Below are positions 8,268 to 16,321 of a stretch of DNA of 28,122 nucleotides, one piece after another. The position numbers and the translations under genes are program-made. The stretch's first letter is position 1. Every line of letters starts with the position of its first letter. A model generated the notes under the pieces. That model was not told where the DNA came from, did no database searches, and was given only the letters and a program-made list of their open reading frames with translations. The stretch lies in UHGV virus genome UHGV-1710763; one strand, 5' to 3'. Origin of the DNA: a virus.

Positions 8268-8494
8268 TTTTCAGTTCTCCTGCGATTTATGATTTTGCTG
8301 CAATAGAGAAACGAAGTAAACTCACTGGAAGAAACCATTAAGTGTTGTTCACTAGATTGAGCCATTGCCCTGAAATACATTCCAGTCAAAGCATCATAGT
8401 GACTATTCTTTCCAATTGAGGTTATATAGCCATGACTCTTTGCAGTTTGATATAAATCTATAATATCTGCGATTTCTAATTGGGAACTACACAT
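8261..8494 (-). CDS. hypothetical protein (77 aa)
   Basis: ORF-track ORF. Confidence 0.45.
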   Translation of the reverse strand: MCSSQLEIADIIDLYQTAKSHGYITSIGKNSHYDALTGMYFRAMAQSSEQHLMVSSSEFTSFLYCSKIINRRRTEKC

Positions 8495-9339: not shown

Positions 9340-10755
9340 ATGAGCGAATTATTTAAACATGCGCACCTTCATGCAGGTCGAACTGAAAATGGTGCTGTAA
9401 ACCATACTTCATCAATGTCTGCTCTTGTAGACTTTTACAAAGCTGCTGGTTCAAGCCGTAGCAATGTAGAAATCTTACCAGACCTGTTCTACAAAGCTTT
9501 GCGTGAGGATGTTGATGTTGCAGTTCGTATTTTACTGCATATGCGAGATGTACGAGAAGGTATGGGTGAGCGTAAAGCCTTCAGAACTGTTTTGCTTCAA
9601 GCAATTGAAGATAAAGTTTTAGAGCCTACACAGGTTCTTCGCATTATGGATAAGATTGCAGAACTTGGTCGTTTTGATGACTTCAAAATCTTCGTAGGTA
9701 CTCGTTTCGAGACAGATGCCTTCAAACATTTAGAAGCAGCATTACTAGACCCTGCAACAGCAGGTTTGGCAGCTAAGTGGTTACCACGAGTAAAACCACG
9801 TCACAAACAGTTTGTAAAACGTTTCTGCAAGTTTGCAAACTTGAGTGAGAAGGAGTATCGCACACTGTTATCTGCACTGTCTGATACGGTTGAGCAAAAA
9901 ATCTCTGCTAATGAGTTTGGTAAGATTGACTACAGTAAGATTCCTTCACTTGCTGCTGCACGTTACCAAAAACTCTTTAACCGTAAAGATGGAGAACGCT
10001 ACAAAGCTTACATTGAGTCCTTATCAAAGGGCGAGACTAAGATTAATGCTGGTGCTGTTTATCCATACGATGTGATTAAATCTGTTAAGTATGGTAATGC
10101 AGATGTTGCTAATGAGCAGTGGAAAGCACTACCAAACTGGATGGCAGAGGGTGAAAACATTCTATGTATGTCTGATGTTTCAAGTTCAATGTCTTGGGTG
10201 AATTTTGGTTCAATTACTGCTCTTGATATTGGTGTTTCACTTGCATTGTATGTAGCAGAACGTAATACAGGTTGCTTTAAGAATGAGTTGATGGTTTATT
10301 CAACAAACCCTCACTTCATTGAACTGAGTGGTGATTTACGAAACCGTCATCGTCAGGTGATGCGACACGTTGAATATGGCTCAACTAACTTACAAGCAGC
10401 TTTTGACCGTATTCTTGAGACAGGTAAAAGAAACAACTTGACTCAGAAAGATATGCCAAGTAAGCTTATCATCTTCTCCGATATGGAGTTCAATCAGGTT
10501 GATGGAGCTAACGGTCGTACAAACTTTGAAGCAATTCAGAGTAAGTACAAAAAAGCTGGATATGAGATGCCACAACTGGTATTCTGGTACTTAGCAAACC
10601 GTAATGGCACTTGCGAAGTATCTGTTAAGGATAACGGTGTAGCAATGGTATCTGGTTTCTCTCCAGCCACTTTAAAAGCTTTGCTTGGTGGTGAGAAGTT
10701 TGACCCAATCAGCGTAATGCTCAAAGCAGTAATGATTGACCGTTATATCTGGTAA
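9340..10755 (+). CDS. Ro60/TROVE-like protein: alpha-helical N-terminal region plus C-terminal vWA domain with MIDAS motif (Rsr-like)
   Basis: MIDAS DxSxS in ILCMSDVSSSMSW; C-terminal IIFSDMEF; YPYDVIKSV segment; helical N-terminus. These parallel Ro60 segments as recalled from memory (HPFHILIAL, LLAVDVSASMN, VFIVFTDNE). Confidence 0.55.
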   Translation: MSELFKHAHLHAGRTENGAVNHTSSMSALVDFYKAAGSSRSNVEILPDLFYKALREDVDVAVRILLHMRDVREGMGERKAFRTVLLQAIEDKVLEPTQVLRIMDKIAELGRFDDFKIFVGTRFETDAFKHLEAALLDPATAGLAAKWLPRVKPRHKQFVKRFCKFANLSEKEYRTLLSALSDTVEQKISANEFGKIDYSKIPSLAAARYQKLFNRKDGERYKAYIESLSKGETKINAGAVYPYDVIKSVKYGNADVANEQWKALPNWMAEGENILCMSDVSSSMSWVNFGSITALDIGVSLALYVAERNTGCFKNELMVYSTNPHFIELSGDLRNRHRQVMRHVEYGSTNLQAAFDRILETGKRNNLTQKDMPSKLIIFSDMEFNQVDGANGRTNFEAIQSKYKKAGYEMPQLVFWYLANRNGTCEVSVKDNGVAMVSGFSPATLKALLGGEKFDPISVMLKAVMIDRYIW

Positions 10756-10765
10756 AAAGTTTTAA

Positions 10766-10802
10766 AAAGGGTATTGACAATGTGTTTGATACCCTTTAAT
10801 AT
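10766..10802 (+). promoter_or_regulatory. sigma70-like promoter (TTGACA-17-TAATAT) embedded in a 9-bp-stem hairpin just after the Ro60-like gene
   Basis: TTGACA 10774-10779, TAATAT 10797-10802; inverted repeat AAAGGGTAT (10766-10774) / ATACCCTTT (10789-10797). Confidence 0.55.
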
Positions 10803-10864
10803 TTTCTACATAGAAACGAAATGAGAGCTTTTCTAAGATACTGAAAAATATTTTAAAAAAGTTC

Positions 10865-10894
10865 TTGACAATCACTAAAAAATAATGTTAAAGT
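10865..10894 (+). promoter_or_regulatory. sigma70-like promoter ahead of the first tRNA
   Basis: TTGACA at 10865-10870; TAAAGT at 18-nt spacing; AAAAAAGTTCTTGACA upstream context. Confidence 0.45.
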
Positions 10895-10920
10895 GGTTAC
10901 ATAGAGTTTGAAAAGTTTAT

Positions 10921-10997
10921 CTCTGTTTAGCTCAGCTTGGTAGAGCGTTCCGTTTGGGGCGGTAAGGCCGGAGGTTCAAGTCCTCCAACAGAGACCA
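10921..10997 (+). tRNA. tRNA-Pro (anticodon TGG)
   Basis: Hand-folded cloverleaf: acceptor CTCTGTT / AACAGAG, D-arm GCTC..GAGC, anticodon loop TTTGGGG, T-arm GGAGG-TTCAAGT-CCTCC, encoded CCA. Confidence 0.7.
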
Positions 10998-11004
10998 AAT
11001 TAAT

Positions 11005-11082
11005 GTTCCAGTAGACAAAATGGTAAAGTCACCACTCTTTCAAAGTGGATATCTGAGGGTTCAAATCCCTTCTGGAACGCCA
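11005..11082 (+). tRNA. tRNA-Glu (anticodon TTC)
   Basis: Acceptor GTTCCAG / CTGGAAC; anticodon stem CCACT / AGTGG with loop CTTTCAA; T-loop TTCAAAT; CCA. Confidence 0.75.
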
Positions 11083-11173
11083 GTTTTGACAGAAGACCAA
11101 TTACAGCAAACTTAATCTTATTCATCTGAAGGTAAATCGGACAAAGAAGAGATTTGGTCTGGTCATTAAGAAT

Positions 11174-11250
11174 TGCGGGTATAGAGAAAGGGCGTCTCAC
11201 ATGTCTCATTAGCATGGTATCGGCAGGTTCGACTCCTGCACCCGCCTCCA
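11174..11250 (+). tRNA. tRNA with CAT anticodon (Met, fMet or Ile-lysidine; identity unresolved)
   Basis: Anticodon stem CATGT / GCATG with loop CTCATTA; T-arm GCAGG-TTCGACT-CCTGC; acceptor has a 1:72 mismatch; CCA. Confidence 0.65.
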
Positions 11251-11334
11251 AATTTACAGAAGACCGTTTACAGCAATACTTATTAAATTTTTAGCGGAAA
11301 AAATTGAAATATACGGTCTGGTAATACTAAACAT

Positions 11335-11411
11335 GGTTAGGAAGCACATAAGGTATGTGCGGTCGCCTGTTAAGCGAATGGCACAGGGTTCGAATCCCTG
11401 ACTAACCGCCA
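11335..11411 (+). tRNA. tRNA-Asn (anticodon GTT)
   Basis: Acceptor GGTTAGG / ACTAACC; D-arm GCAC..GTGC; loop CTGTTAA; T-arm CAGGG-TTCGAAT-CCCTG; CCA. Confidence 0.75.
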
Positions 11412-11480
11412 AATTTAGGAGAGAAGCAATTGCTCACCGATTTGTAAGGTGCAAGTCCTTAGCCTGAATAGAAATTAAAT

Positions 11481-11568
11481 GTGTCGTTATCCCGTAGATG
11501 GTAGCGGTGGGGACTGTAAATCCCTTGTCATTGAGACTCGGTAGGTTCGACTCCTACACGGCACACCA
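11481..11568 (+). tRNA. tRNA-Tyr (anticodon GTA), class II with long variable arm
   Basis: Acceptor GTGTCGT / ACGGCAC; anticodon stem GGGGA / TCCCT with loop CTGTAAA; ~15-nt variable arm; T-arm GTAGG-TTCGACT-CCTAC; CCA. Confidence 0.65.
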
Positions 11569-11573
11569 ATAAA

Positions 11574-11651
11574 GGTTATGTAGTTTAATTTGGTTAAAAT
11601 ACTCCCCTGTCACGGGAGATGATGAGGGTTCAAATCCCTTCGTAACCGCCA
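11574..11651 (+). tRNA. tRNA-Asp (anticodon GTC)
   Basis: Acceptor GGTTATG / CGTAACC; anticodon stem CTCCC / GGGAG with loop CTGTCAC; T-loop TTCAAAT; CCA. Confidence 0.75.
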
Positions 11652-11834
11652 ATTTTGAGAGGGCTATTTAGCCCCTCCCTTAAAGGGTTCTTACGAGTAT
11701 CCTTTAAAGGAGCAGAAGACCAAATACAGCAAGTTACTTAAAATTTCAAGCCAATTTAATTTTGAAAAATTTAAAACTTGGTCTGGCTCAACAAATTTAC
11801 AGAAGACCGTTTACAGCAAAACTTAAACAATCTA

Positions 11835-11907
11835 TTTCTCCGGTAAAGAAAAGGCGAAGGTTCGATTCCTTCACTCGGCAGATGTCGAGTTGGTGTAATG
11901 GTAGCAC
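11835..11907 (+). ncRNA. circularly permuted tRNA-like element (anticodon-like hairpin, T-arm, acceptor stem closed by an AGAT loop, D-arm); candidate Y-RNA-like tRNA mimic
   Basis: Order read directly: TTTCT-CCGGTAA-AGAAA, GAAGG-TTCGATT-CCTTC, ACTCGGC-AGAT-GTCGAGT (7 bp), TG, GTG-TAATGGTAG-CAC; no 5' acceptor partner upstream and no 3' half downstream. Confidence 0.35.
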
Positions 11908-11932
11908 TTAAGATGATAAACAACGGTCTGGT

Positions 11933-12076
11933 AATTATCTTTGTAGATAAGTTATTAAGCTTACCTGTGAGTATGCGACCACAAAGGGTGAAAGGGTAAA
12001 TTCTAGATTTAAACCTAACAAGGCACATCGCTACAGACCTTAAGCAAGTCTGGGTAGCTTATCTACAAAGATAATT
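11933..12076. repeat. perfect 18-19-bp inverted repeat flanking a ~106-bp segment (long hairpin, possible RNase III site or miniature element)
   Basis: ATTATCTTTGTAGATAAG at 11934-11951 is the exact reverse complement of CTTATCTACAAAGATAAT at 12058-12075. Confidence 0.6.
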
Positions 12077-12080
12077 TAAT

Positions 12081-12156
12081 GGAAGTGTAGCAGAATGGTG
12101 ATGCGGCAGACTTTTAATCTGACAGGCGATGGGTTCGAATCCCTCCACTTCTACCA
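12081..12156 (+). tRNA. tRNA-Lys (anticodon TTT)
   Basis: Acceptor GGAAGTG / CACTTCT; anticodon loop CTTTTAA; T-loop TTCGAAT; CCA; paralogue of the Lys(CTT) gene at 13309. Confidence 0.75.
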
Positions 12157-12161
12157 AAAAT

Positions 12162-12238
12162 GGTTCAGTCGCAGATAAGGTAATGCAAGGGTTTCATAAG
12201 CCCTATGAATGTGGGTTCGATTCCCACCTGAACCTCCA
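12162..12238 (+). tRNA. tRNA with CAT anticodon (second copy; Met / fMet / Ile2 unresolved)
   Basis: Acceptor GGTTCAG / CTGAACC perfect; anticodon stem AGGGT / GCCCT with loop TTCATAA; T-arm GTGGG-TTCGATT-CCCAC; CCA. Confidence 0.7.
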
Positions 12239-12239
12239 A

Positions 12240-12315
12240 GCTGGTATAGTTAAGAAGGTTATAACACTCCCCTGATAAGGGAACATCGGTGGTTCGATTC
12301 CACCTACCAGTACCA
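12240..12315 (+). tRNA. tRNA-Ile (anticodon GAT)
   Basis: D-arm GTTA..TAAC; anticodon loop CTGATAA; T-arm GGTGG-TTCGATT-CCACC; CCA. Confidence 0.7.
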
Positions 12316-12330
12316 ATTTCAATAAAGTTG

Positions 12331-12359
12331 TTGACATTGAGATGTGACTACTTTATAGT
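12331..12359 (+). promoter_or_regulatory. strong sigma70-like promoter inside the tRNA island (TTGACA-17-TATAGT)
   Basis: TTGACA 12331-12336, exactly 17-nt spacer, TATAGT 12354-12359, with the AATAAAGTTGTTGACA upstream context. Confidence 0.6.
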
Positions 12360-12562
12360 AACCTTAGTTTTCGTTGCGTAGCGTCTATTTTGCAAATTTA
12401 AAATAAATGCAAACGACAATGTTTTTCTGGCAGTAGCTTGATAGGCTAAACACCAGTGAGGTCTTCCAATCCCTCATCAAAGAATTTGGCGTACTAGCCC
12501 ACGGTATGATTAATAAGGTGGGCATCTTTAAGGGCTTTCTAAGAGAGTCTTTAAAGATTAAT

Positions 12563-12639
12563 GCACCCTTAGTTCAATTGGATAGAGCAACGGTCTTCTA
12601 AATCGTTAGTTACAGGTTCGAATCCTGTAGGGTGTACCA
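12563..12639 (+). tRNA. tRNA-Arg (anticodon TCT)
   Basis: Acceptor GCACCCT / AGGGTGT; D-arm GTTC..GAGC; anticodon stem ACGGT / ATCGT with loop CTTCTAA; T-arm ACAGG-TTCGAAT-CCTGT; CCA. Confidence 0.75.
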
Positions 12640-12780
12640 ATTAGTTAGCAGATTACTTAGACGACCTAAGCGGGTCTTCCTGTAGGGAGGTGGTCTGTAT
12701 CTCATGTTTTCCAGAACATGTAAATAATCTGAGAAGGGGCTTTACAGTGTTGAGATAATACGGTAAGCTTCGAATTATAG

Positions 12781-12867
12781 TATGGGACGATGTTAAGACT
12801 CTAAGGCATGAGCAACGGCTTCCAACACCGTTTCAAAGGGGTTCAACTCATCCGTCCCATGCCAAAG
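12781..12867 (+). ncRNA. unresolved tRNA-like structured element (11-bp terminal stem, 9-nt-loop hairpin with CTTCCAA, T-loop-like GGGGTTCAA, ends GCCA)
   Basis: TATGGGACGATG pairs with CATCCGTCCCATG; internal hairpin AACGG-CTTCCAACA-CCGTT; no canonical cloverleaf could be drawn. Confidence 0.3.
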
Positions 12868-12877
12868 TCTTATTAGG

Positions 12878-12965
12878 GGTAGGTAGCGGCTAATGGTAGC
12901 CAAACAGTCTTGAAAACTGTTGCCACTGTAGAGATACGGTGAGGGTTCGACTCCTTTACTTACCG
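12878..12965 (+). tRNA. tRNA-Ser (anticodon TGA), class II; CCA not encoded
   Basis: Acceptor GGTAGGT / ACTTACC; anticodon stem ACAGT / ACTGT perfect with loop CTTGAAA; long variable arm; T-loop TTCGACT. Confidence 0.6.
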
Positions 12966-13223
12966 CCTAATAAGATTTTACACCGTCCATGCTTGCTCGC
13001 ATTTTCGGTTTATCCCTCGTGTATTGTCGTACACACTGATAAAGCACCTAGTAGGTGTCACGGAGAAGAGATAATATCAAGCTCTCCAAAGGTTCTAGCC
13101 ACCGGATTAAACAAGACTATGCAAAGACCTTTTTAGGTCTTTTTAGAGGGCTTCTAAGGTTATTACAGCTTGTTGTGGAACCTTGTTGCTTAGGTTCTTA
13201 GAAGTTCTCTAAAAAGATTTAAT

Positions 13224-13301
13224 GGGAGATTGACGGTAATTGGTAAACCTACCATCCTTAGAAGTTGGTGTTTGAGGGTTCGAATCCCTTGTCTCCTACC
13301 A
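13224..13301 (+). tRNA. tRNA, anticodon provisionally TAG (Leu) on a class-I-length scaffold; identity uncertain
   Basis: Acceptor GGGAGAT / GTCTCCT (two G-U pairs); loop CTTAGAA between CCATC / GTTGG (one mismatch); T-arm GAGGG-TTCGAAT-CCCTT; CCA; D-arm irregular. Confidence 0.5.
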
Positions 13302-13308
13302 AATTAAT

Positions 13309-13384
13309 GCAGGTGTAGCAAAATGGTTATGCGGCTGACTCTTAATCAGTAAGACGATGGGTTCAATTCCCTCCACCTGTACCA
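13309..13384 (+). tRNA. tRNA-Lys (anticodon CTT)
   Basis: Acceptor GCAGGTG / CACCTGT; anticodon stem GCTGA / TCAGT with loop CTCTTAA; T-loop TTCAATT; CCA. Confidence 0.75.
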
Positions 13385-13391
13385 AACAATG

Positions 13392-13467
13392 GGGGTCATA
13401 GTTTATATGGTTAAAATTCGAGTTTTGCAAACTTGGGAACTGAGTTCAATTCTCAGTGACTCCACCA
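13392..13467 (+). tRNA. tRNA-Ala (anticodon TGC)
   Basis: Acceptor GGGGTCA / TGACTCC; anticodon stem CGAGT / ACTTG with loop TTTGCAA; T-arm CTGAG-TTCAATT-CTCAG; CCA. Confidence 0.75.
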
Positions 13468-13473
13468 ATTAGT

Positions 13474-13548
13474 GCATCCATAGTTTAAACGGGAAAATTA
13501 CAGTCTTCCAAACTGAGGTTGAGGGTTCGATTCCCTCTGGATGCTCCA
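13474..13548 (+). tRNA. tRNA-Gly (anticodon TCC)
   Basis: Acceptor GCATCCA / TGGATGC perfect; loop CTTCCAA; T-arm GAGGG-TTCGATT-CCCTC; CCA. Confidence 0.75.
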
Positions 13549-13562
13549 AATTAAGGTGTGAT

Positions 13563-13976
13563 ATGAAAATATGCAGTACTTGCAGAATACCAAAAGATGA
13601 AAGCTTATTCCATAAGAATAAGAACAAGAAAGACGGTCTTCAAAGTCAATGCAAAGATTGTGCAAGACTTCGTGATGCAAAGAGTTATCAAGCAAATGAT
13701 AAAAGGAAAGAGGCTATTAAAAGCACTCGTAACTTCAAGAGAGAGCATAACAAGACTCTAGCTAGAAGGTACAAAGCTTTATGCAAATGTCATATATGTG
13801 GTGAGAAAGAACCAGTTGCACTGGATTTACACCATACAGACCCTTCCCAGAAAGATTTGAATCCTGCATCACTTTATTCATACTCCACAAAAAGATTAAA
13901 AGATGAAATCAGAAAGTGCATTGTCTTGTGCGCTAACTGTCACAGAAAAGTACATGCTGGTATCATAAAAGTTTAA
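13563..13976 (+). CDS. HNH family endonuclease (free-standing homing-endonuclease-like gene)
   Basis: Cys pairs CKDC and CKCHIC plus an HNH core (LDLHHTD ... N ... CANCHRKVH) in the translation; sits between tRNA-Gly and tRNA-Thr. Confidence 0.7.
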   Translation: MKICSTCRIPKDESLFHKNKNKKDGLQSQCKDCARLRDAKSYQANDKRKEAIKSTRNFKREHNKTLARRYKALCKCHICGEKEPVALDLHHTDPSQKDLNPASLYSYSTKRLKDEIRKCIVLCANCHRKVHAGIIKV

Positions 13977-13977
13977 T

Positions 13978-14054
13978 GCTGCTTTCGTATAATTGGCTAT
14001 TACACATCCCTTGTAAGGATGGAAATGCAGGTTCGAGTCCTGTGAGCAGCACCA
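13978..14054 (+). tRNA. tRNA-Thr (anticodon TGT)
   Basis: Acceptor GCTGCTT / GAGCAGC; anticodon stem CATCC / GGATG perfect with loop CTTGTAA; T-loop TTCGAGT; CCA; starts 2 nt after the HNH stop codon. Confidence 0.8.
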
Positions 14055-14149
14055 ATTCAGAGGTCAAGTGAAAGACCGCTGGTGTCAACTGAAGACCGTA
14101 ACAAATTCCACGGAGTTGAGTTAGCGGCACAACTTCAGACCTCTTTCAT

Positions 14150-14224
14150 ACTCGCTTAGTTTATATGGTAAAACATCACCCTTACAAGATGAAGAGAAAG
14201 GTTCAAGCCCTTTAGTGAGTACCA
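14150..14224 (+). tRNA. tRNA-Val (anticodon TAC)
   Basis: Acceptor ACTCGCT / AGTGAGT; D-arm GTTT..AAAC; loop CTTACAA; T-arm AAAGG-TTCAAGC-CCTTT; CCA. Confidence 0.65.
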
Positions 14225-14225
14225 T

Positions 14226-14303
14226 GTTCCAGTATCCCAATTGGCAGAGGATGCAAGCTCAAACCTTGTACTAGTGACGGTTCGAATCCGTCTTGGAACA
14301 CCA
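14226..14303 (+). tRNA. tRNA with CAA anticodon (Leu-type) but only a 6-nt variable region
   Basis: Acceptor GTTCCAG / TTGGAAC; anticodon stem GCAAG / CTTGT with loop CTCAAAC; T-arm GACGG-TTCGAAT-CCGTC; A73; CCA. Confidence 0.6.
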
Positions 14304-14308
14304 ATTTT

Positions 14309-14384
14309 GCAGGATTAGTTCAAATGGATAGAGCAACAGTCTACGAAGCTGTTAATAGGGGTTCGAATCCCTTATCCTGCGCCA
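14309..14384 (+). tRNA. tRNA-Arg (anticodon ACG)
   Basis: Acceptor GCAGGAT / ATCCTGC perfect; D-arm GTTC..GAGC; anticodon stem ACAGT / GCTGT with loop CTACGAA; T-loop TTCGAAT; CCA. Confidence 0.8.
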
Positions 14385-14403
14385 ATTTAAAGAGGCTATT
14401 TAG

Positions 14404-14961
14404 ATGAGATATTTGAAGTATGCTTCATGGATTTTCTTAGCTTTGTTAGAGCCATTTGCAGCAATCTTAGCAGTTATCTTAGCACCTTTTGTAGTTCCAT
14501 TCTACAGTGAGAAGAAAGGACACTTACCTTTCGGATTCAGATGGATGGAGACATATGACAACCCAATTGATGGTGATGAAGGTCACGTTAAAAGATGGGC
14601 TAATATTAGATGGATTGGTAAACTAGGTGTCTACATGCAAAGAGTCGGATGGCTCTGGAGAAACAAAGCTTATAACTTCTCTTACCATGTATTAGGAAGA
14701 GATGTAAAAGATGTTACTAAGTGGAAAGGTAATATCAACGTAAGTTCTAACCCTGAAGATAATCAGACAGGTTATCTCCTAATGTGGAACAGCAATGCTT
14801 GGGGATTATTCGCTTTTATCCCATCAATTAAAATCTTTGGTAAACAGTTCTACTGGAGAATTTATATTGGGTGGAAGCTAAAAAGTGTTGTCCCAGAAGA
14901 AAGAGCATTCTCAAGGGAAAGAGTTATGTTGGCATTCTTTATTCATCCACTAAGAAAGTAA
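14404..14961 (+). CDS. hypothetical membrane protein (hydrophobic N-terminus, Trp-rich)
   Basis: ORF-track ORF; N-terminal hydrophobic stretch WIFLALLEPFAAILAVILAPFVV; embedded between tRNA genes. Confidence 0.55.
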   Translation: MRYLKYASWIFLALLEPFAAILAVILAPFVVPFYSEKKGHLPFGFRWMETYDNPIDGDEGHVKRWANIRWIGKLGVYMQRVGWLWRNKAYNFSYHVLGRDVKDVTKWKGNINVSSNPEDNQTGYLLMWNSNAWGLFAFIPSIKIFGKQFYWRIYIGWKLKSVVPEERAFSRERVMLAFFIHPLRK

Positions 14962-14969
14962 AGATTTAA

Positions 14970-15045
14970 AGGGGATTAGTTTACAAGGTTAAAACCTCGG
15001 TCTTTGAAATCGAAGAAGTTGGTTCAATTCCAACATCCCCCGCCA
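14970..15045 (+). tRNA. tRNA-Gln (anticodon TTG)
   Basis: D-arm GTTT..AAAC; anticodon stem TCGGT / ATCGA with loop CTTTGAA; T-arm GTTGG-TTCAATT-CCAAC; weak 1:72 pair; CCA. Confidence 0.7.
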
Positions 15046-15047
15046 AT

Positions 15048-15126
15048 GCTCCATTACTCCAATTGGCAGAGAGGCCAGACTTAAAATCTGTGTTATGTAT
15101 CGGTTCGAATCCGATATGGAGTACCA
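15048..15126 (+). tRNA. tRNA with TAA anticodon (Leu-type) but only a 7-nt variable region
   Basis: Acceptor GCTCCAT / ATGGAGT; anticodon loop CTTAAAA; T-arm ATCGG-TTCGAAT-CCGAT; A73; CCA. Confidence 0.6.
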
Positions 15127-15131
15127 AATTT

Positions 15132-15207
15132 AGCGGTATAGCATAACTGGCAATGCAACAGTCTCTGAAGCTGTCTTATTAAGGTTCAAATCCTTATGCC
15201 GCTGCCA
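15132..15207 (+). tRNA. tRNA-Gln (anticodon CTG)
   Basis: Acceptor AGCGGTA / TGCCGCT; anticodon stem ACAGT / GCTGT with loop CTCTGAA; T-arm TAAGG-TTCAAAT-CCTTA; CCA. Confidence 0.7.
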
Positions 15208-15238
15208 CTTCTAAGGGTTCTTACGAGAGTCCTTAAAT

Positions 15239-15314
15239 GTGGCCTTATCATAAATGGTAATGACCCATGCTGTGAACATGGTCTATACGGGTTCAAATCC
15301 CGTAGGTCACCCCA
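15239..15314 (+). tRNA. tRNA-His (anticodon GTG)
   Basis: Acceptor GTGGCCT / AGGTCAC; D-arm TCAT..ATGA; anticodon stem CCATG / CATGG perfect with loop CTGTGAA; C73 discriminator; CCA. Confidence 0.75.
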
Positions 15315-15321
15315 ATTTATA

Positions 15322-15396
15322 GTCCAAGTAGCTTATATGGTTAAAGCGCGTGTCTGAAAAACATGAGAAGAGGGTTCAAATCCCACTGGACTACCA
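15322..15396 (+). tRNA. tRNA-Phe (anticodon GAA); acceptor register ambiguous
   Basis: D-arm GCTT..AAGC; anticodon stem CGTGT / ACATG with loop CTGAAAA; T-loop TTCAAAT; ends ACCA. Confidence 0.65.
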
Positions 15397-15412
15397 ATTT
15401 CAAAGGTGCTTA

Positions 15413-16147
15413 ATGAAAGAGATGACAGAACAAGGTAAGGAGATTTTTAATCTCTTAAAAACCGGTAAAGGGTTTTCTAACCCACTTATTACTGGTGCAG
15501 CAGTTCTCGGTGGAACCGTAGCTGCCTCTACATCACTTGTAAGCTCTATTAGCTCTGTAACAGACCCTACAACGAAGGAGAAACTTGTTGCTGCTGGACT
15601 TACAACAGTTCTTCTAAACAGCTTTACAACAAGCCTGACAAGCACTACAGCAACTACTAAGACCCTAACAGACTACGGTCAAAAGTCTATTGATGAGTTT
15701 TCATCACGTATGCAGGTGGCAAAGGGATATTCCAATGTTATGGGTGCAGCAGGAGAACAAGTTGGTTGTACACCATTCAGTGGTATTATGGGTGTTGCTA
15801 CAGAGTATGGTCAGCAAGCTATTGACATGATTAACAGCACACTAGACAGTGTTAACGGTGTGTTAAGTGACTTACAAGATGCTATTGACAAGGGTCTTGA
15901 TACTGTTTCTGATTTAGCTAACCAAGCTGTAAGTAAGATTAATGAAGGTATTTCAAAGATTACAGCTTATGCAGATGAAGTTGTGCAGATGATTGAAGAA
16001 GAAGCTGCCCTTATTGCAGAGTACCTTAAAACGAATATCAATGGGTTCTTAGCAGGTATCTTACCAGACTGGTTTGATGATGCCTGTAAAACTGGTGTAA
16101 TTGACACTATTGCAACACCAGAAATGAAGAACGCATTACAGAAATAA
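15413..16147 (+). CDS. hypothetical Ser/Thr-rich protein; start moved downstream of the track ORF (15350) to the first ATG clear of tRNA-Phe
   Basis: Track ORF 15350..16147 overlaps the tRNA at 15322-15396; the in-frame ATG at 15413 has AAAGGTG upstream. Confidence 0.55.
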   Translation: MKEMTEQGKEIFNLLKTGKGFSNPLITGAAVLGGTVAASTSLVSSISSVTDPTTKEKLVAAGLTTVLLNSFTTSLTSTTATTKTLTDYGQKSIDEFSSRMQVAKGYSNVMGAAGEQVGCTPFSGIMGVATEYGQQAIDMINSTLDSVNGVLSDLQDAIDKGLDTVSDLANQAVSKINEGISKITAYADEVVQMIEEEAALIAEYLKTNINGFLAGILPDWFDDACKTGVIDTIATPEMKNALQK

Positions 16148-16148
16148 T

Positions 16149-16241
16149 GGAAGATTAACCCTAAAAGGTAAGGGAGCAGTTTGCTAAACTGCCAGTAGCT
16201 GAGAAATCGGTGTACCAGTTCAAGTCTGGTATCTTCCTCCA
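16149..16241 (+). tRNA. tRNA-Ser (anticodon GCT), class II with long variable arm
   Basis: Acceptor GGAAGAT / ATCTTCC perfect; anticodon stem GCAGT / ACTGC perfect with loop TTGCTAA; ~20-nt variable arm; T-arm ACCAG-TTCAAGT-CTGGT; CCA. Confidence 0.8.
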
Positions 16242-16245
16242 ATTT

Positions 16246-16321
16246 GAATCCGTGACAGAAATGGCTATGTGCCTGTCTGCAAAACAGGTTTATAAGGGTT
16301 CGAGTCCCTTCGGATTCTCCA
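16246..16321 (+). tRNA. tRNA-Cys (anticodon GCA)
   Basis: Acceptor GAATCCG / CGGATTC perfect; anticodon stem CCTGT / ACAGG perfect with loop CTGCAAA; T-arm AAGGG-TTCGAGT-CCCTT; CCA. Confidence 0.8.

Follow-up and report, generated by a model that had tools for sequence, protein, structure and literature searches.

Two kinds of small RNA that have already been described come closest to the element reported here, a set of four repeat units in the transfer RNA (tRNA) array of the virus genome UHGV-1710763, which was analysed as one stretch of 28,122 nucleotides (nt), hereafter the window. The first kind is the Y RNAs, whose paired ends form a conserved helix in the metazoan Ro60 particle (PDB 1yvp, 2i91 and 9nfa) and whose bacterial members, YrlA and YrlB, are encoded beside the gene for the Ro60-fold protein Rsr and carry a putative Rsr site, GNCGAAN0-1G, near the 5′ end (Chen 2014, PMC4201824). 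The second is the Class I RNAs of Dictyostelium (RF01414; Aspegren 2004, Avesson 2011, Kjellin 2021), which are abundant and stable and have been reported as unique to Dictyostelia (PMC7919456). These measure 42-65 nt (median about 60), with rarer longer members and a variable interior. They start with AAG and end with CUGU, the G pairing with the C, and their ends are joined by a 6-bp helix conserved in structure and free in sequence, beside whose 5′ strand lies a largely unpaired 11-nt motif with nearly invariant U3, C6, C9, A10 and A11 (PMC7919456). In Dictyostelium, direct binding of a Class I RNA has been demonstrated for one protein only, Rnp1A, which has an RNA recognition motif (RRM). 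The preprint of Kjellin et al. names Rnp1A/CIBP, GuaB, NdkC and DDB_G0281243, a protein of unknown function, as DdR-21 pull-down proteins.

A phage protein with a bearing on both systems has been described in the PhageMaP preprint (PMC11482910), which reported that gp130 of phage Bas63 counters the Ppl defence system, had independently seen its Ro60-like fold, and speculated that some downstream tRNA genes are possibly Y RNAs, identifying none.

In the homologous locus of the window, our comparisons show an RNA-like element that is conserved, has a covarying helix and goes specifically with a Ro60-fold gene; one copy is predicted to contain a tRNA mimic. We consider it quite probable that the four units are small non-coding RNA genes (a long one of about 130 nt, the other three about 60-70 nt) and the cognate partners of the upstream Ro60-fold protein of the DUF2828/von Willebrand factor A (vWA) type, and so would be functional analogues of Y RNAs. 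The best reading of the system is as a putative new Ro60/Y-RNA-like particle in which both protein and RNA come from non-canonical families. The literature searched contained no description of an RNA-protein pairing of this kind; queries with the motif string returned primers only, and those for DUF7788 or Ro60-like returned nothing relevant.

The four repeat units and their predicted fold

Judged by its sequence, the window is that of a FelixO1-like myophage (Felixounavirus), and positions 10700-12600 are 98.5-98.9% identical to Escherichia phages VpaE1_ev108, finno and JohannRWettstein (Bas63). The 26 tRNA genes that ARAGORN identified span 10921-16321 and share the + strand. The repeat units fill gaps among the first tRNAs of this array, starting 4-10 nt past the tRNAs in the manner of a bacterial-type operon.

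The 5′ motif AGAAGACCNNNTACAGCAA (AGAAGACC-N3-TACAGCAA) occurs in four exact copies, at 11091, 11258, 11714 and 11801, all on the + strand, against a chance expectation of 0.37 copies; no further copies appeared even when 3 mismatches were allowed. Each is closed by one of the four GGTCTGG sites on the + strand of the region (11156, 11315, 11780 and 11925, or 11155, 11314, 11779 and 11924 with the preceding T/C included). A preliminary description of this DNA, made from the letters alone, had reported the four motif copies with their GGTCTGG closure, and these are real. Given the sites just listed, its 3′ coordinate of 11779 was exact, and those of 11159, 11317 and 11918 were 3-6 nt off. The distance between 5′ and 3′ motifs measures 57-124 nt rather than the 55-115 nt given there, and the 30-mer that two copies were said to have in common is an identity of 28 nt between units 2 and 4 (CAAATTTACAGAAGACCGTTTACAGCAA).

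All four units have one predicted fold in common, in which an outer 4-bp helix leads through an asymmetric AGA/G internal loop to an AGACCNN/NNGGUCU helix; the hairpin-closing pairing of GGTCTGG with AGACC that had been proposed is thus present in every fold. Immediately after the AGACCNN strand, the 8-mer UACAGCAA is exact in all four units and predicted to be single-stranded, and the interior beyond it is variable. The outer helix differs between paralogues in a compensatory manner (UGAC/GUCA, UUAC/GUAA and GAGC/GCUC). Among Felixounaviruses the units are near-invariant, and the rare changes are wobble-compatible or compensatory, as in the outer helix of unit 2, where UUAC/GUAA is replaced by UUGC/GCAA in related phages. 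Core lengths are 67, 59 and 68 nt for units 1 to 3 and 126 nt for unit 4.

The minimum free energy (MFE) fold of unit 4 contains the permuted tRNA-like domain that the preliminary description had placed there. Its elements follow one another as V-like hairpin, T arm, loop-closed acceptor stem and D arm, the order of a tRNA permuted at the anticodon position (Table 1). A partial Rfam tRNA match of 23.3 bits spans the anticodon-arm position, the T arm and the 3′ acceptor strand, and ARAGORN called no tRNA at 11822-11912.

Linkage of the units to a Ro60-fold gene family

The open reading frame (ORF) upstream of the units, which corresponds to Bas63 gp130, stops 332 nt ahead of unit 1, and the units extend to about 1180 nt downstream of it. 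Its only Pfam matches are to DUF2828 (3.9e-29) and DUF7788 (1.8e-43), that is, PF11443 and PF25043; TROVE (PF05731) was not matched. A sequence search of the PDB gave nothing meaningful, and kinship with Ro60 is visible at the level of the fold alone. The AlphaFold2 model (predicted local distance difference test, pLDDT, 88.5) shows a HEAT-repeat ring and a C-terminal vWA domain with a MIDAS motif. When it was compared with the PDB by Foldseek, the best 11 matches were all Ro60, Rsr or phage Ro60 at full length (TM 0.48-0.70, E 5e-8 to 1e-6), including Xenopus Ro60, human Ro60, Deinococcus Rsr and Thermus phage Ro60. The MIDAS residues of the DxSxS pattern, D279, S281 and S283, are invariant across the family. 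DUF2828/DUF7788 proteins form about 8,800 clusters at 50% identity, and fold matches in BFVD include those of Pithovirus, Cafeteria roenbergensis virus, a choanoflagellate mimivirid, Marseillevirus and Bodo saltans virus. We propose the predicted product of this ORF as the protein partner of the four RNAs.

To follow the units from the protein side, we assembled loci around DUF2828 homologues, 78 from IMG/VR (proteins 29-47% identical) and 80 from GTDB genomes. A strict descriptor (G; a perfect helix of 6-8 bp; a gap of 0-3 nt; ACAGCAA; the complementary helix strand, with C as its last base; then TG) matched the IMG/VR loci 38 times on the gene strand and twice on the opposite strand, with about 0.5 matches expected from shuffles (0-2 over twenty shuffles); the GTDB loci gave 19 and 1. 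In the IMG/VR loci, a closing helix was present at 33% of gene-strand ACAGCAA sites versus 1.1% of random positions. The conserved core opens with AAG and the 5′ strand of a 6-bp helix, continues through single-stranded UACAGCAA into a variable insert, and ends with the 3′ strand of the helix and CUG. It recurs, nearly always on the gene strand, in about 80 further loci from phages, bacteria, archaea and giant viruses. Units may lie on either side of the gene: locus L028 has two downstream of it, and L029 has three in tandem upstream, with helices GAGCAC, GAACGC and GGACAU. Because the three units of L029 are flanked by tRNAs and a terminator-like hairpin that precedes the protein gene, they look like separate RNA genes and not like a 5′ untranslated region.

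Alignment of 34 short units of phage, bacterial and archaeal origin (A5) revealed six helix pairs that are paired in every sequence, although this paired fraction is partly built in, since many units were picked with a stem criterion. The diversity of pairs is not affected by that choice: the first G-C is invariant, and Watson-Crick pairs of 2-4 types occur at each of the other five positions; the alignment has 75 doubly changed cells, compared with 23 in shuffles. CAGCAA never varies, and conservation extends to the flanks AAAG and CUG. A further, seventh pair of the terminal helix was rejected, as 23 of its 34 cells are unpaired.

A covariance model built from A5 (R2) found exactly the four units in the 28-kb window and nothing else above noise, including unit 4, which lay outside the training set (29.8 bits, E 4e-6). 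At E ≤ 0.1, all 84 matches in the IMG/VR loci were on the gene strand, as were 72 of 73 in the GTDB loci; at E < 0.01, matches were present in 45 of the 78 and 33 of the 80 loci, respectively. Typically, 2-5 of them stand in an array no more than a few hundred nt from the gene.

The linkage also holds from RNA to protein. A scan of IMG/VR with the pattern AAAGGN5TACAGCAAN{24,54}CCTG, which imposes neither stem nor protein, yielded at least 120 loci. Among the matches listed, 62 had a closing helix and 58 had none; a same-strand DUF2828 ORF lay in the fetched stretch for 32 of the former and for none of the latter. The breadth of the association includes giant viruses. In a giant-virus metagenome-assembled genome (MAG; L225), with RING-finger, RNase HII and glycosyltransferase genes as neighbours, at least four units directly follow the DUF2828 gene, and giant-virus-like contexts with thymidine kinase and spermine synthase (L313-L316) hold three or four units at E down to 2e-9, for example AAAGGAUCC-A-UACAGCAA...GGAUCCUGU.

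Same-strand tRNA arrays surround the module in about half of the 60 loci checked, and 29 of the 60, giant-virus contigs included, have no tRNA in the stretch. In three GTDB Chloroflexota-associated contigs (L153, L157 and L183), L038 and others, gene and RNAs stand in the middle of an array of 13-26 same-strand tRNAs; the three Chloroflexota-associated contigs, with up to 23-26 tRNAs, have the arrangement seen in the window. On these grounds, viral tRNA islands appear to have this module as a recurring component.

Some variants of the arrangement were also observed. In L225 (10945-11075 and 11300-11590), an (AAAAC)n microsatellite parts the DUF2828 ORF from the RNA cluster, and at two sites a 3′-half-like GACUCCUGU or GGCUCCUGU stands directly before the complementary AAAGGAGUC or AAAGGAGCC plus ACAGCAA; these sites look like circularly permuted or locally hairpinned variants. 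At L112 5521-5616, D-arm-, anticodon-arm- and T-arm-like hairpins occupy the interior in normal tRNA order, a Class-I-type terminal helix replaces the acceptor stem, and UUACAGCAA is inserted after the 5′ strand of that helix.

Table 1. Positions of the predicted RNA units, the tRNA-like domain of unit 4, the neighbouring protein gene and promoter-like sites in the window
Feature	Position	Strand	Remarks
Unit 1 RNA	11087-11165	+	between tRNA-Glu and tRNA-Met; outer helix 11087-11090/11162-11165
Unit 1 core	G11095...C11159; UACAGCAA 11102-11109	+	R2 40.5, RF01414 19.7, R1 12.8 bits
Unit 2 RNA	11254-11324	+	between tRNA-Met and tRNA-Asn; outer helix 11254-11257/11321-11324
Unit 2 core	G11262...C11318; UACAGCAA 11269-11276	+	R2 42.3, RF01414 21.3, R1 14.1 bits
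Unit 3 RNA	11710-11789	+	after tRNA-Asp and two hairpins; outer helix 11710-11713/11786-11789
Unit 3 core	G11718...C11783; UACAGCAA 11725-11732	+	R2 39.9 bits
Unit 4 RNA, long form	11797-11934	+	outer helix 11797-11800/11931-11934; encloses tRNA-like domain
Unit 4 core	G11805...C11928; UACAGCAA 11812-11819	+	R2 29.8 bits, E 4e-6; RF01414 12.8 bits
Permuted tRNA-like domain in unit 4	11822-11912	+	MFE fold
Anticodon-stem-like helix	11822-11825/11909-11912	+	MFE fold, unit 4
V-like hairpin	11835-11851	+	MFE fold, unit 4
T arm, loop UUCGAUU	11856-11872	+	MFE fold, unit 4
Acceptor stem closed by 4-nt loop AGAU	11873-11890	+	MFE fold, unit 4
D arm	11892-11908	+	MFE fold, unit 4
Ro60-fold protein gene (predicted), 471 amino acids	9340-10755	+	DUF2828 and DUF7788 (vWA-like); corresponds to Bas63 gp130
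Sigma-70-like promoter sites	10774-10802 and 10865-10894	+	upstream of tRNA-Pro; consensus scan, 10/12 matches each

Resemblance to Dictyostelium Class I RNA and to Y RNAs

At gathering thresholds, Rfam recognized only tRNAs in the region of the units. The sole other resemblance is a weak one to RF01414, the Dictyostelium Class I RNA, for units 2, 1 and 4 (Table 1); the scores do not reach the gathering threshold of 41.5 bits, and unit 3 had no reported match. The RF01414 consensus nevertheless has the same element in the same place, with CUUACAGCAA following the terminal helix and UG following its 3′ strand. The correspondence extends to the 6-bp end-joining helix with its invariant first G paired to the C of the 3′ CUG, to the flanks (AAG...CUG(U) in Class I, GAAG...CUGG in the window, AAAG...CUGU/A in other loci), and to the single-stranded (U)UACAGCAA immediately past the 5′ strand, which parallels the Class I motif CCUUACAGCAA. 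Of the positions conserved in that motif, C6, C9, A10 and A11 are present in all four units of the window and U3 in three. A length of about 60 nt, a variable interior and occasional long forms (up to 141 nt in dictyostelids) are further likenesses. Curated Class I sequences look interchangeable with phage units, as a comparison of the amoeba RNA GGUUCCUUUACAGCAAUC...GGGAAUCUG with the phage RNA GGUUCCUUACAGCAAAC...GGAACCUG illustrates. The two differ in that the first two C of the 11-nt motif are not conserved in phage-type units and that Felixounavirus units bear an additional outer helix. Moreover, Class I RNAs are dispersed multi-copy nuclear genes with a DUSE promoter about 60 nt upstream, whereas the window units lack that promoter, would be polycistronic with tRNAs and belong to a phage of bacterial hosts.

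For a second covariance model (R1), the training set comprised 49 Class I RNAs, all from six dictyostelids. Its best two matches in the window are units 2 and 1, both marginal (E 0.11 and 0.23, respectively); the thresholds of Kjellin 2021 (PMC7919456) are Infernal scores of at least 15 together with a promoter, or at least 25 alone. In the IMG/VR loci, the top 20 R1 matches all lay on the gene strand beside DUF2828 genes, reaching 29.2 bits (E 2.5e-4), and 34 of 37 matches in the GTDB loci were on the gene strand, reaching 29.3 bits. Conversely, 32 of the 49 amoeba Class I RNAs passed the strict descriptor derived from phage units. These two results together indicate a signature common to phage and amoeba RNAs beyond chance, which may have arisen by shared ancestry, by horizontal transfer or by convergence upon a common protein. 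When a giant-virus DUF2828 homologue served as the query of a protein search, the best 120 matches were all metagenomic proteins.

An R1 match at a gene junction on the - strand (8272-8310, 12.4 bits, E 0.3, UUCUCUAUUGCAGCAA...GAGAACUG) was judged to be due to chance, as it is not supported by R2. Separately, T-arm-like hairpins of the GGUUCGAAUCC type occur in the Class I RNAs ppa_can_99, asu_can_20 and DpuR-22 (Kjellin 2021 supplement), and they parallel the tRNA-like inserts seen in unit 4 of the window, in the L028 units and at L112 5521-5616.

The relation to YrlA/YrlB and Rsr (PMC4201824) is one of organization. As there, the predicted RNA genes are neighbours of a Ro60-fold gene and come in both short and long paralogous forms, and the design is modular, with a putative protein-binding stem formed by the ends and a variable effector module; the genomic setting likewise ties the system to tRNA and RNA-repair biology. 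Unit 4 alone resembles YrlA in its tRNA-like domain with T arm, D arm and loop-closed acceptor stem. Unlike that system, however, the window protein belongs to DUF2828/DUF7788 and not to TROVE, the units carry UACAGCAA in place of a GNCGAA-type Ro-binding motif, and up to four or five copies per locus are interleaved with tRNAs. Searches of Rfam 15 with 10700-12600 and 11790-11940 found no match at E ≤ 10 to a Y RNA, YrlA or other bacterial family, and the covariance-model comparison with Y RNA families suggested in the preliminary description is in this sense negative. No unit has GNCGAAN0-1G near its 5′ end, and the one GGCGAAG, at 11853-11859, falls in the T-arm region of unit 4. With the metazoan Ro60-Y RNA particle, the locus has in common the full-length fold match of the predicted protein (HEAT-repeat ring and vWA/MIDAS) and small RNAs whose ends pair into a conserved helix; protein identity is only about 12-16%, there is no RNA sequence similarity, and the bulged GGUCCGA helix is missing. 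On these comparisons, the units are Y-RNA-like in logic and are not members of the Rfam Y RNA/YrlA families.

Operon setting, alternative explanations and significance

The two promoter-like sites of Table 1 are, from their pattern, the likely start of the operon containing the units. No + strand terminator was found in the operon region before 12320. Several other features of the + strand were recorded in this part of the array. Between unit 4 and tRNA-Lys lies a strongly structured element of about 146 nt (11933-12078), whose 24-bp terminal stem surrounds a four-way junction (MFE -47.1 kcal/mol, z -5.55, none of 200 shuffles equally stable). It has no Rfam match and may be another non-coding RNA of the operon. 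Two neighbouring hairpins separate tRNA-Asp from unit 3 (11652-11714, z -2.7), the first being GGGCUAUUUAGCCC and the second, with a longer stem, UUAAAGGGU paired with AUCCUUUAA; no T-tract terminator follows them. The best promoter-like site of the region, TTGACA-17-TATAGT (11/12), is at 12331-12359, and after it come about 200 nt without a convincing ORF and then tRNA-Arg (12320-12562). A weak, sub-threshold Rfam match to permuted transfer-messenger RNA (29.2 bits versus a threshold of 47) covers 12257-12441. Farther along, the tRNA array is broken up by a 137-amino-acid ORF with a weak HNH endonuclease match (13563-13976, E 0.005) and by ORFs at 14404-14961 (DUF7338) and 15350-16147 (DUF7217).

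Four other explanations of the units were considered, and each is contradicted by at least one test. They could be real small RNAs with a partner other than the DUF2828 protein, such as a sponge or decoy for a host RNA-binding protein or nuclease, adjacency then reflecting a shared operon or function. The binding of a Class I RNA by Rnp1A fits this possibility, as does the absence of a DUF2828 gene from the fetched stretch in about half of the helix-bearing matches listed from the pattern-first scan. We nevertheless hold it very unlikely, given that strand and distance link the units to DUF2828 across phages, bacterial and archaeal MAGs and giant viruses, that no other recurrent family was found among ten ORFs examined beside DUF2828-less units, and that Ro60-fold proteins are known to bind RNA stems (PDB 1yvp, 2i91). 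Still less likely, in our assessment, is a passive role as spacers or a cis-acting one as processing signals of the tRNA operon, in which hairpins would direct or obstruct RNase E, RNase P or exonucleases and have no life after processing. Points in its favour are the placement of the units between same-strand tRNAs with no promoter or terminator of their own and the frequent occurrence of the module within tRNA arrays. Yet this alternative, which the preliminary description had raised as processing sites, is disfavoured by the tRNA-free loci, where the same units adjoin the protein gene; a conserved single-stranded 8-mer and invariant flanks would be superfluous for a generic processing hairpin, and the abundant, stable Dictyostelium RNAs bear the same signature.

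The adjoining Ro60-fold gene, the joint occurrence of short and long forms as in YrlB and YrlA, and the YrlA topology of unit 4 could alternatively be taken to mean ordinary bacterial Y RNAs bound by a bona fide Ro60 orthologue. We give this even less credence than processing signals, in view of the missing Rfam and 5′-motif matches described above, the assignment of the protein to DUF2828/DUF7788 instead of TROVE with no PDB match by sequence, and the lack of any counterpart of UACAGCAA in described Y RNAs. Least probable of the four are DNA-level elements, whether repeated promoters, operators or recombination sites. A weak promoter-like match overlaps unit 2 (TTTACA-N16-AATACT, 9/12), and the 28-nt identity between units 2 and 4 would suit a DNA element; that promoter-like match, however, is no better than chance (6 found, 4.1 expected), and compensatory changes between positions 45-120 nt apart, together with strict orientation relative to the gene, are signatures of RNA.

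The reading of the units as RNA partners of the Ro60-fold protein has points against it as well. Its support is comparative throughout, expression, RNA ends and binding being predictions, and the folding z-scores of single units are modest (-1.1 to -2.3). Part of the covariation set was chosen by a stem criterion or a stem-containing model, and about 31 of the R2 matches are that model's own training sequences. Among the stem-positive pattern matches listed, 30 of 62 have no DUF2828 ORF in the fetched stretch, although at least two of these (L194 and L255) merely end before the gene, since they share contigs with the DUF2828-bearing L051 and L048. Neither a canonical Ro-binding motif nor an Rfam Y RNA match was found, and the Ppl-countering phenotype was ascribed to the protein gene alone (PMC11482910). 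In favour of this same reading stand the terminal helix, which covaries across relatives, the linkage to the Ro60-fold gene in position and strand, and the YrlA-type domain of unit 4; the family of small structured RNAs or protein-binding stems suggested in the preliminary description is supported by all three.

We suggest that the units would be transcribed within the tRNA operon from about 10.8-10.9 kb, consistent with the promoter-like sites, the shared strand and the lack of a terminator. RNase P and 3′ tRNA-processing nucleases would excise the flanking tRNAs and thereby release the units, whose ends the terminal helix and bound protein may shield. AAG, the 6-bp helix with its invariant closing G-C, the single-stranded UACAGCAA and the 3′ CUG would form the platform for protein recognition, because they are conserved together with the gene while the helix sequence covaries freely. 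By analogy with Ro60 on the conserved Y RNA helix, the helix and UACAGCAA would bind the DUF2828 ring. More speculatively, the variable insert could be an effector or tether module, and the tRNA mimic of unit 4, its acceptor stem closed as in YrlA, could be a docking site for enzymes that recognise tRNA, or a decoy for defence nucleases that target it. The particle might then serve surveillance of RNA, probably tRNA, and/or counter-defence during infection, a role consistent with the reported countering of Ppl by Bas63 gp130.

For the DUF2828/DUF7788 family, which is large, uncharacterised and found in phages, giant viruses, bacteria, archaea and reportedly eukaryotes, these results name a probable RNA partner and suggest an action like that of Ro60. 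The loose Y RNA speculation made for Bas63 in PhageMaP becomes concrete as four defined putative RNA genes, and the recurrent embedding of the module in phage tRNA arrays points to tRNA surveillance or to protection against tRNA-targeting defences.

A wider proposal, which we advance tentatively and with somewhat less than even confidence, is that the phage, bacterial and giant-virus RNAs and the Class I RNAs are one family with one protein-recognition code, AAG, 6-bp helix, UACAGCAA...CUG(U), and that Class I RNAs are Y-RNA-like partners of a putative Ro60-fold protein of DUF2828 type, for which DDB_G0281243 is the first candidate. If true, this would describe a horizontally spread ribonucleoprotein common to phages, giant viruses, prokaryotes and social amoebae, and would overturn the view of Class I RNAs as a dictyostelid invention tied to multicellularity while giving them a testable biochemical role. 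Class I RNAs, orphans for 20 years, would thereby gain their first relatives beyond amoebae and a candidate class of protein partner.

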